Part shown: in pieces, positions 18,080 through 19,189 of the stretch
Numbering within the stretch: the stretch's first letter is position 1
Layout of the letters: the number at the start of each line of letters is the position of its first letter
NCBI GenBank assembly: GCA_951406725.2
Contig: OX597832.1
Coordinates: 32,612,001-32,676,000 of the forward strand
Length of the DNA stretch: 64,000 nucleotides
Direction of reading: 5' to 3'
DNA from: Octopus vulgaris
Lineage: Eukaryota
Position numbers and translations under genes: made by a program
The notes under the pieces: generated by a model
The model's database searches: none
Told to the model about the DNA's origin: nothing
What the model saw: only the letters and a program-made list of their open reading frames with translations

Positions 18080-18473
18080 TACAGTTCTATATTTAAGAGA
18101 AGAGTAATTATGTACATTATTTACATTATTTACATTTGACAGATATTTGTCCTCATCTTGTTTGTTGTTATCACTACGTTTCGGCTGATATACCTTCCAG
18201 CCTTCTTCGGGTGTCTTGGGGGAAATTTCGAACCTGAGTTCTCATTCCTAAAGTATTCTTCGATGTTGTTGTTGTTGTTATTATTATTATTATTATTATT
18301 ATTATTATTATTATTATTATTATTATTATTATTATTATTATTATTATTATTATTATTATTATTATTATTATTATTATTATTATTATTATTATTATTATTC
18401 AGGTCACTGCCTGGAATTGAACTCGGAAACTTGGAGTTAGTAGCCCGCGCTCTTAACCACTACACCGTATGCC
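18080..18473 (-). mobile_element. tRNA-derived SINE-like element with internal (AAT)n and a hammerhead motif in its 3' part
   Basis: Head GGCATACGGTGTAGTGGTTAAGAGCGCGGGC...GAGTTCAATTCCAGG (A and B boxes, 18473-18400), then (AAT)n at 18399-18277, then ACAC CCGAAGA A GGCUG..CAGCC GAAA CG UA GUG (18217-18168), then an AT-rich tail with TGTAAATAA repeats. Confidence 0.75.
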
Positions 18474-19189
18474 GGTGGGCATATGGCGTAGTTGATATGA
18501 AAATAATGAAAAGTACTCATTACATTCATATAAGATTAAAGGATATTGTCACTTGTATATTTGTGATATATATATATATATATATATATATATATATATA
18601 ATATTGTAAATACTAAGGTGACGATGTGACATAACTGTTATCGCCCCGGGCGAACAGCCTATCGTCATTTTTCCCGTCTTTACATTTTGCATTCAAGTGC
18701 CGCCGACATCAACTTTTCCTTTCGATCTCAGTAAAATAAGTACTTATTCCAAGAACTAGCTGTGCAAAGTTTTAATTTAAAATATGGTGACGATGATGCA
18801 CTTCCGTATTATTCAGCAAATTATAAGACAAGCGCCATATTCTTCTTATGTAACCCTTCTCTCTGTGTCTCTTCCTACCATGTGAGACGTGAGTGCAGAA
18901 GTCAACATACCAACCAACATTCATAACGATCCGCATTTAACAGAGACCATGTACTATGACATACAATACAACCTATAACGTATAATATAATGTATATTTC
19001 AACTGTTTCTTTCAATGAATTTTCCCTTCAATAACCTACGACTATGCAACTATTTTAATAATTTATTTGCTAATGCAAACCATCAACATTTCGCCGGTTG
19101 ATAAACTCCTCAGTTTTGTTTATAATTCAGTTAATCTATTGCCGACAGATATGTCAGTGTACACGGTCGATGCTCTATAAGCAAACCTA

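Follow-up and report, generated by a model that had tools for sequence, protein, structure and literature searches.

A decayed solo terminal repeat of a Penelope-like retrotransposon in Octopus vulgaris, with a tRNA-derived head that may serve as a Pol III promoter

We analyzed a 64-kb window of Octopus vulgaris DNA (64,000 nucleotides; GenBank assembly GCA_951406725.2, contig OX597832.1, positions 32,612,001 to 32,676,000 of the forward strand; coordinates below are those of the window). The window holds one copy of a unit made up of a tRNA-like head, a linker of AAT repeats and a tail, in the minus-strand order head (18474-18401), (AAT)40(AAC)5 linker (18263-18399) and minimal type-I hammerhead ribozyme (18215-18170). 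The initial annotation had taken this unit for a tRNA-derived short interspersed element (SINE) with a tail borrowed from a Penelope-like element (PLE). We are close to certain that the unit is instead the pseudo-long terminal repeat (pLTR) of a PLE encoding a reverse transcriptase (RT) and a GIY-YIG endonuclease (EN). With moderate confidence, we further read the window locus as a decayed solo pLTR of an autonomous Penelope/Poseidon-type retrotransposon, whose tRNA-like start is likely an internal RNA polymerase III (Pol III) promoter.

In the genome that was searched (G000, 2.8 Gb), several heads come after the end of a disrupted reading frame for RT and GIY-YIG. Among 29 loci picked by the 3' (EN) end of this open reading frame (ORF), the head lies ~37 nt past the stop codon in 25 and a tail is present in 23. 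When loci were picked by the 5' part of the ORF (30 of 34), the tail was found directly upstream of the ORF in 25. The tail is contiguous and in frame with the ORF N-terminus, the hammerhead lies inside the reading frame, and 15 of 18 copies show a tail length variant that changes by steps of 9 nt. Because the junction between head and stop is fixed and the tail runs in frame into the ORF, the unit is read as a pLTR and its "tail" as the ORF start with the ribozyme; the same fixed junction makes it unlikely that the ORF-linked heads are independent insertions. The full element is thus laid out as a head, (AAT)n and ORF start with hammerhead, then the ORF (RT, GIY-YIG), then 37 nt, and then again a head, (AAT)n and ORF start. 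The near-full-length copies L109 and L257 begin at the head, and the (AAT)n linker is found in near-full-length as well as ORF-linked copies. An autonomous PLE sharing the tail, which the initial annotation had suggested searching for, therefore exists, and the proposed dependence on Penelope machinery stands in a stronger form, the unit being the pLTR of the autonomous PLE itself. The notions of a LINE-style 3' end and of a separate SINE with a borrowed PLE tail do not survive, since the tail is the 5' end of the PLE ORF and head, linker and tail together form the PLE's own pLTR.

The ORF matches RVT_1 (E=6e-10) and is 53% identical to P0001, an 847-aa relative, and 40% identical to an 836-aa Anolis protein, which we infer to be that of the Anolis carolinensis Poseidon element PAc. 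Identity to the Anolis protein in the region from RT to EN is 35%, including a YxIPCSCG..Y stretch. The Pfam GIY-YIG domain is sub-threshold in P0001 (E=0.23) and yields no match in L068. The peptide of the window tail aligns with residues 18-62 of P0001 (37%, E=0.005). Judged by sequence similarity, the element is a probable member of the Penelope/Poseidon clade.

Copies of the unit were collected in two samples by the head (the 29 best-scoring head loci and the first 90 of 1228 head loci in position order) and in one by the hammerhead (50 loci, or 47 events after removal of 3 second arms). A tail lies downstream on the same strand at 24/29 and 77/90 of the head loci, respectively, with linkers that are mostly 3-165 nt long and reach 562 nt at the longest. 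The joint presence of head and tail at 77 of 90 loci and the differing linker lengths between copies agree with the earlier view that the two form one mobile unit around a variable (AAT)n. Two chance insertions into one microsatellite, the alternative raised at that time, are refuted by this co-occurrence in fixed order and orientation; that other elements do enter the (AAT)n tracts of the family speaks for such insertions, and we nevertheless give this explanation virtually no weight. No head joined to another body was seen, and the headed copies without a tail stop in the linker or in nested insertions. Six loci (L002, L055, L075, L084, L235 and L247) have the same ~450-bp element nested in the (AAT)n linker; it ends in an AAT run and looks like a non-autonomous element targeting (AAT)n. 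At L003, L044, L045, L075 and L089, the AAT tract of the linker holds 3' fragments of another RT-encoding non-LTR element, which we take to be Dong/R4-like, and the pLTR linker may create landing sites for it. It had also been proposed that the unit spreads (AAT)n repeats. The unit does carry them, but it is not their only source, because other long AAT-type arrays in the window (22164-22269, 38839-39082 and 59205-59551) adjoin neither a head nor a tail.

Exact 34-mers were counted in the same genome for the hammerhead (3952), the head (1228), the sequence directly upstream of the head (455) and the ORF just past the tail (34), with 0 matches to the reversed controls. Scaling by exact-match rates of 12/67 (hammerhead), 6/34 (head) and 10/29 (ORF-linked end) gives rough lower bounds of at least ~22,000 hammerheads, ~7,000 heads and ~1,300 ORF-linked ends.

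The 3' ends of the copies are bimodal, falling at tail positions 137-165 or 178-188. In the window copy, ORF N-terminal sequence leads to the proximal (short) 3' end cluster at 18107-18169 and the optional PLE "tail" leads to the distal 3' end at 18076-18106, both on the minus strand; the element ends at ~18081-18076, and full-length copies run on into the ORF. An inverted arm is present in 29 of the 47 hammerhead-selected events. Of 27 inverted pairs, 23 have a single long arm, 4 have no long arm and none has two. The initial annotation's comparison with the 5' inversions of PLEs is upheld by these arms, which occur in 51 of the 73 copies that start at the head and also at the window copy. 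There, a fold-back inverted copy of the head's 5' end (18482-18492, minus strand) lengthens the native TGCCC/GGGCA hairpin, yielding a 14-pair hairpin at 18492-18459 (-21.1 kcal/mol, z -4.25) that was matched by 0/200 shuffles. Five long copies with alternating orientation and matching ends (L315-L319, G000:C1 7.93-9.05 Mb) are probably a local segmental duplication.

The window copy is decayed. It departs from the column majority at 17/260 positions, two of them in the A box, and has a U4C change in the hammerhead core, a 3-bp stem I and a frameshift in its ORF part. The predicted start codon of the PLE ORF is at 18243-18245 (minus strand); L257 reads from the equivalent ATG, and the window copy is frame-shifted downstream. 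Rfam called neither a tRNA nor a hammerhead at the locus and ARAGORN called no tRNA, with models that miss decayed heads and minimal hammerheads.

The short copies might still constitute an independent tRNA-SINE lineage parasitizing the PLE, with most of them descending from SINE masters, as originally supposed. They are ~4-5 times as numerous as ORF-linked copies (17/90 extend upstream; exact counts of 1228 vs 455) and contain both promoter boxes and priming sites, all of which would suit such a lineage. However, when 73 short and 45 ORF-linked copies were compared over 256 columns, every majority column was common to both and no diagnostic substitution was found, the lowest p-values lying in the search motif or in gap columns, which speaks against a separate SINE subfamily. 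Divergence is 5.1% among short copies and 6.1% among ORF-linked ones. Like a SINE, the unit opens with a head that is derived from a tRNA and contains A and B boxes. A SINE head would be absent from the autonomous partner, with only the 3' tail in common, but here head, linker and tail are all the partner's own pLTR. Instead of a simple-repeat or poly(A) 3' end with a target-site duplication, the copies end at two fixed ORF positions; target-site duplications were looked for at the window copy, which has neither a duplication nor a poly(A) tail. An AT-rich stretch with 13/15 similarity lies 18 nt from the window copy's junction and is probably there by chance. We thus consider an independent SINE lineage quite unlikely, and the best reading is that short copies and ORF-linked pLTRs come from the same source elements. 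They fall outside the SINEs on three tested features and may behave in a SINE-like manner if they are re-transcribed.

The PLE-type minimal hammerhead reported for the window is as described, with a CCGAAGA core, an extra A, GGCUG/CAGCC as stem II, GAAA-CG-UA and CAC/GUG as stem I. It lies within the ORF N-terminus (18170-18215, minus strand), with a predicted cut after 18175, U4C at 18209 and a weakened stem I. The family shows the features of minimal hammerheads: its columns read CUGA(U/A)GA, as the CUGANGA core suggested earlier would have it, followed by the extra A, G10.1-C11.1, a stem II of 5-6 bp, a palindromic GAAA-CG-U and a 5-bp stem I. U4 is present in 65/71 copies, and the window copy has C at this position. 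Core position 7 is split 50:20 between T and A, equivalent to Asp/Glu in the ORF frame, and may mark two source lineages. Related metagenome PLEs carry ~20 distinct motifs with the same core and different paired stems II, although the regular expression demanded 4 pairs and the pairing of stem II there is partly by construction. Judging by its presence in four related PLE loci (L363, L417, L359 and L364, with CCGA for CUGA), U4C is not necessarily lethal and may be a tolerated natural variant. No cut ends were seen among reads of another species placed on L250 at 80% likeness. The PLE ORFs at loci L414-L436, of which some have hammerheads, sit in contigs labelled as metagenome-assembled genomes of bacteria or archaea and are likely contamination from eukaryotic hosts.

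That the head is tRNA-derived and retains A and B boxes is borne out by its end-to-end alignment with genuine tRNAs of the searched genome. Compared with 41 distinct tRNA sequences, the head best matched tRNA-Arg(TCG/TCT), collinear over 74 nt (z 7.4-8.0). The set covers Arg, Thr, Cys, Ala, Ser, Lys and Glu only, so the Arg isotype is tentative; a tRNA-Ser origin, considered from the look of the anticodon loop, scored below Arg. The octopus tRNA-derived SINEs OK, OR1 and OR2 are reportedly of tRNA-Arg-like origin and are possible donors of the head. A profile of genuine tRNAs matches family heads just past the ORF stop with E down to 3e-5, reached by copies less decayed than the window head (E=3). 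The head occupies 18401-18474 on the minus strand and forms the 5' end of the pLTR, with the A box at +8..+18 (18457-18467, bearing the two substitutions noted above) and the B box at +53..+61 (18414-18422, matching GTTCRANNC), so that tRNA spacing is retained. The A box lay within the head search motif and the B box outside it; at each B box position, 50-64 of 67 copies agree with the majority base. None of 103 related PLE loci has a tRNA-like head in the pLTR position, and an A/B-like motif 450 nt beyond the truncated match at L403 was unconvincing as a tRNA head. In ORF-linked copies (e.g., L086), 20 nt at -21..-1 before the head resemble a decayed inverted copy of its first 17 nt, which suggests that the junction between ORF and head itself arose by fold-back.

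We give roughly even odds to the claim that the head both indicates where transcription starts and acts as a Pol III promoter. The +1 region of a tRNA is where Pol III is expected to start. The 5' ends of the position-ordered headed copies lie at -25..+13 in 73/90, most commonly at -7 (18/90), and in 22/34 of the copies without an inverted arm. Positions -7..-1 of the window copy (18475-18481, minus strand) would then be a transcription start or a fold-back point. Of the 47 hammerhead-selected events, 12 stop within the linker or tail and 35 reach the head, with ends at +17..+74 in 3, at -20..+16 in 22 and beyond -100 in 10; five of these last 10 resemble one local duplication. Runs of four T (T4) are scarce on the sense strand, with 27 in 79 kb of copies (87 segments, 0.34/kb) and none recurrent over 2.3 kb. 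The median among 79 related PLE ORFs is 3.5 T4/kb, with only 2 equally depleted, although these rows are not independent. T4 occurs in 18/20 pLTR windows of relatives, and 30/47 pLTRs of the headed family have none.

Several points weigh against this reading and against the autonomous element behind it. The T4 depletion is not significant against codon-preserving (codon-shuffled) single-frame nulls (P ~0.4-0.6) or an order-2 Markov null (P(0)=0.155), and the ORFs of L335 and L340 are free of T4 although these loci lack a tRNA head. A hairpin at -21..+17, the second-strongest region of the element (-13.4 kcal/mol vs a median of -5.2), could alone produce the 5' pile-up. Reads of another species placed on L250 at 80% likeness are equally deep in both directions and follow copy number (depths of ~1500 at the hammerhead, 600 at the head, 400 at EN and 4 at the ORF start), and within this copy-number-driven depth they show no pile-up of starts or ends. 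Translation of an uncapped Pol III RNA would be unexplained. All ORF copies seen are broken, with no intact ORF found and a longest open stretch of 461 aa, and the ORF-start loci L250 and L271 have EN sequence upstream, i.e., they are ordinary partial tandems. The one mapped Penelope promoter is a LINE-like, TATA-less internal promoter (PMC2377424).

The competing explanation is an ordinary PLE with a passenger, in which the head comes from a tRNA pseudogene or a SINE, once became attached behind the ORF and has no promoter function, Pol II transcribes the element, and the hairpin stalls or folds the cDNA so that short copies pile up. It accounts for the hairpin sitting exactly at the pile-up, for the inverted arms on 51 of the 73 copies ending at the head, for the inverted-head likeness of the 20 nt before +1 and for the weakness of the T4 depletion under codon nulls. 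We nevertheless regard it as rather unlikely, since 22 of 34 inversion-free copies also start at the head, the boundary coincides with the tRNA +1 and with the expected Pol III start, the B box is intact in most copies despite lying outside the search motif, and recurrent T4 is absent from both pLTR and ORF.

Under the Pol III reading, transcription would start ~6-7 nt before the tRNA +1. The element's protein would nick AT-rich DNA and, as the Anolis Poseidon element has been shown to do in vitro, begin reverse transcription from either of two ORF-internal sites, which here would lie ~120-140 and 165-170 nt past the ORF start. Priming at the first pLTR of the RNA would give a ~300-nt copy from start to tail, as at the window locus, and priming at the last pLTR would give 5'-truncated ORF copies. 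The cDNA end would fold back on the small GC hairpin to produce an inverted arm, leaving a long tail on one arm only. Cleavage by the hammerhead would occur in dimeric form or with help from protein. Solo copies retain both the promoter and the sites of priming and so may be copied anew in trans, as SINEs are. More tentatively still, we propose that an autonomous coding PLE acquired its internal Pol III promoter by capturing a tRNA gene and rid its entire 2.8-kb unit of oligo-T terminators, and that its solo terminal repeats are transcribed and re-mobilized in a SINE-like manner, seeding (AAT)n at tens of thousands of sites; we think this possible, at somewhat less than even odds.

Pol III promoters are a hallmark of non-coding SINEs. 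If the Pol III reading is true, a coding retrotransposon would have one, making it a puzzle how its uncapped RNA is translated and what role a hammerhead inside the ORF start plays, and SINE-like elements could arise without capture of a LINE tail. PLE start sites have been mapped for very few elements, and the boundary here is recorded in thousands of copies. Automatic annotation would likely class these PLE termini as tRNA-SINEs.

The closest known system is PAc, whose hammerhead and start codon overlap, whose optional tail of 30-40 bp is bounded by two internal sites of RT initiation and whose nuclease favors ATT targets (PMC11167929, Frangieh et al. 2024). The octopus element is similar to PAc in its ORF of ~830-850 aa with RT plus GIY-YIG at the C-terminus, its hammerhead at the ORF start, its two RT sites and optional tail, and the ATT preference (PMC11167929). 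Unlike in PAc, a complete tRNA-like sequence followed by an (AAT)n linker opens its pLTR, its ATG lies ~35 nt upstream of the ribozyme core, and its sense strand lacks recurrent T4; the available text on PAc does not mention a tRNA-like promoter (PMC11167929). Drosophila virilis Penelope likewise forms partial tandems and has inverted ends, and its promoter is internal to the pLTR region, as is the putative one here (PMC2377424, Schostak et al. 2008). The D. virilis element has a TATA-less, LINE-like promoter and an intron, whereas the octopus element has A and B boxes there and no evident intron (PMC2377424).

The minimal hammerheads of metazoan PLEs, mostly dispersed single copies of truncated PLEs, are likewise type I, with an extra nucleotide between 9 and 10.1, G10.1-C11.1, a palindromic 15.2-16.2 and a 5-bp helix I (PMC4209133, Cervera and de la Pena 2014). 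The ribozyme of the octopus unit is no different from these, and it is the linked tRNA head that sets the unit apart (PMC4209133). The initial annotation's likeness to Schistosoma Sm-alpha stands insofar as both have a Pol III-type promoter followed by a type-I hammerhead, but the arrangement differs: Sm-alpha is non-coding and forms tandem arrays, whereas the octopus unit belongs to a coding element, as its terminal repeat, and is dispersed and found in head-to-head pairs (PMC6765202). Inverted PLE pairs with a tail at one end only have been described (PMC8557442, Craig et al. 2021). The non-autonomous Chlamys PLEs (MRC1) are also short non-coding PLE derivatives sharing a 3' end, but they belong to another clade, have no canonical hammerhead and are not reported, in the text available, to have a tRNA head (PMC8557442). 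In the literature covered (including the available parts of PMC13282606, PMC8967140, PMC6962438, PMC10886601 and PMC4824008), we came across no PLE pLTR with a tRNA-derived or Pol III head, a search that left aside Repbase, Dfam, SINEBase, Ohshima and Okada 1994 and supplements, where the family could be listed, perhaps as a SINE. Hammerheads, inversions and tails are known features of PLE pLTRs, and the unusual part of the octopus element is the whole tRNA-derived head at the start of its pLTR.
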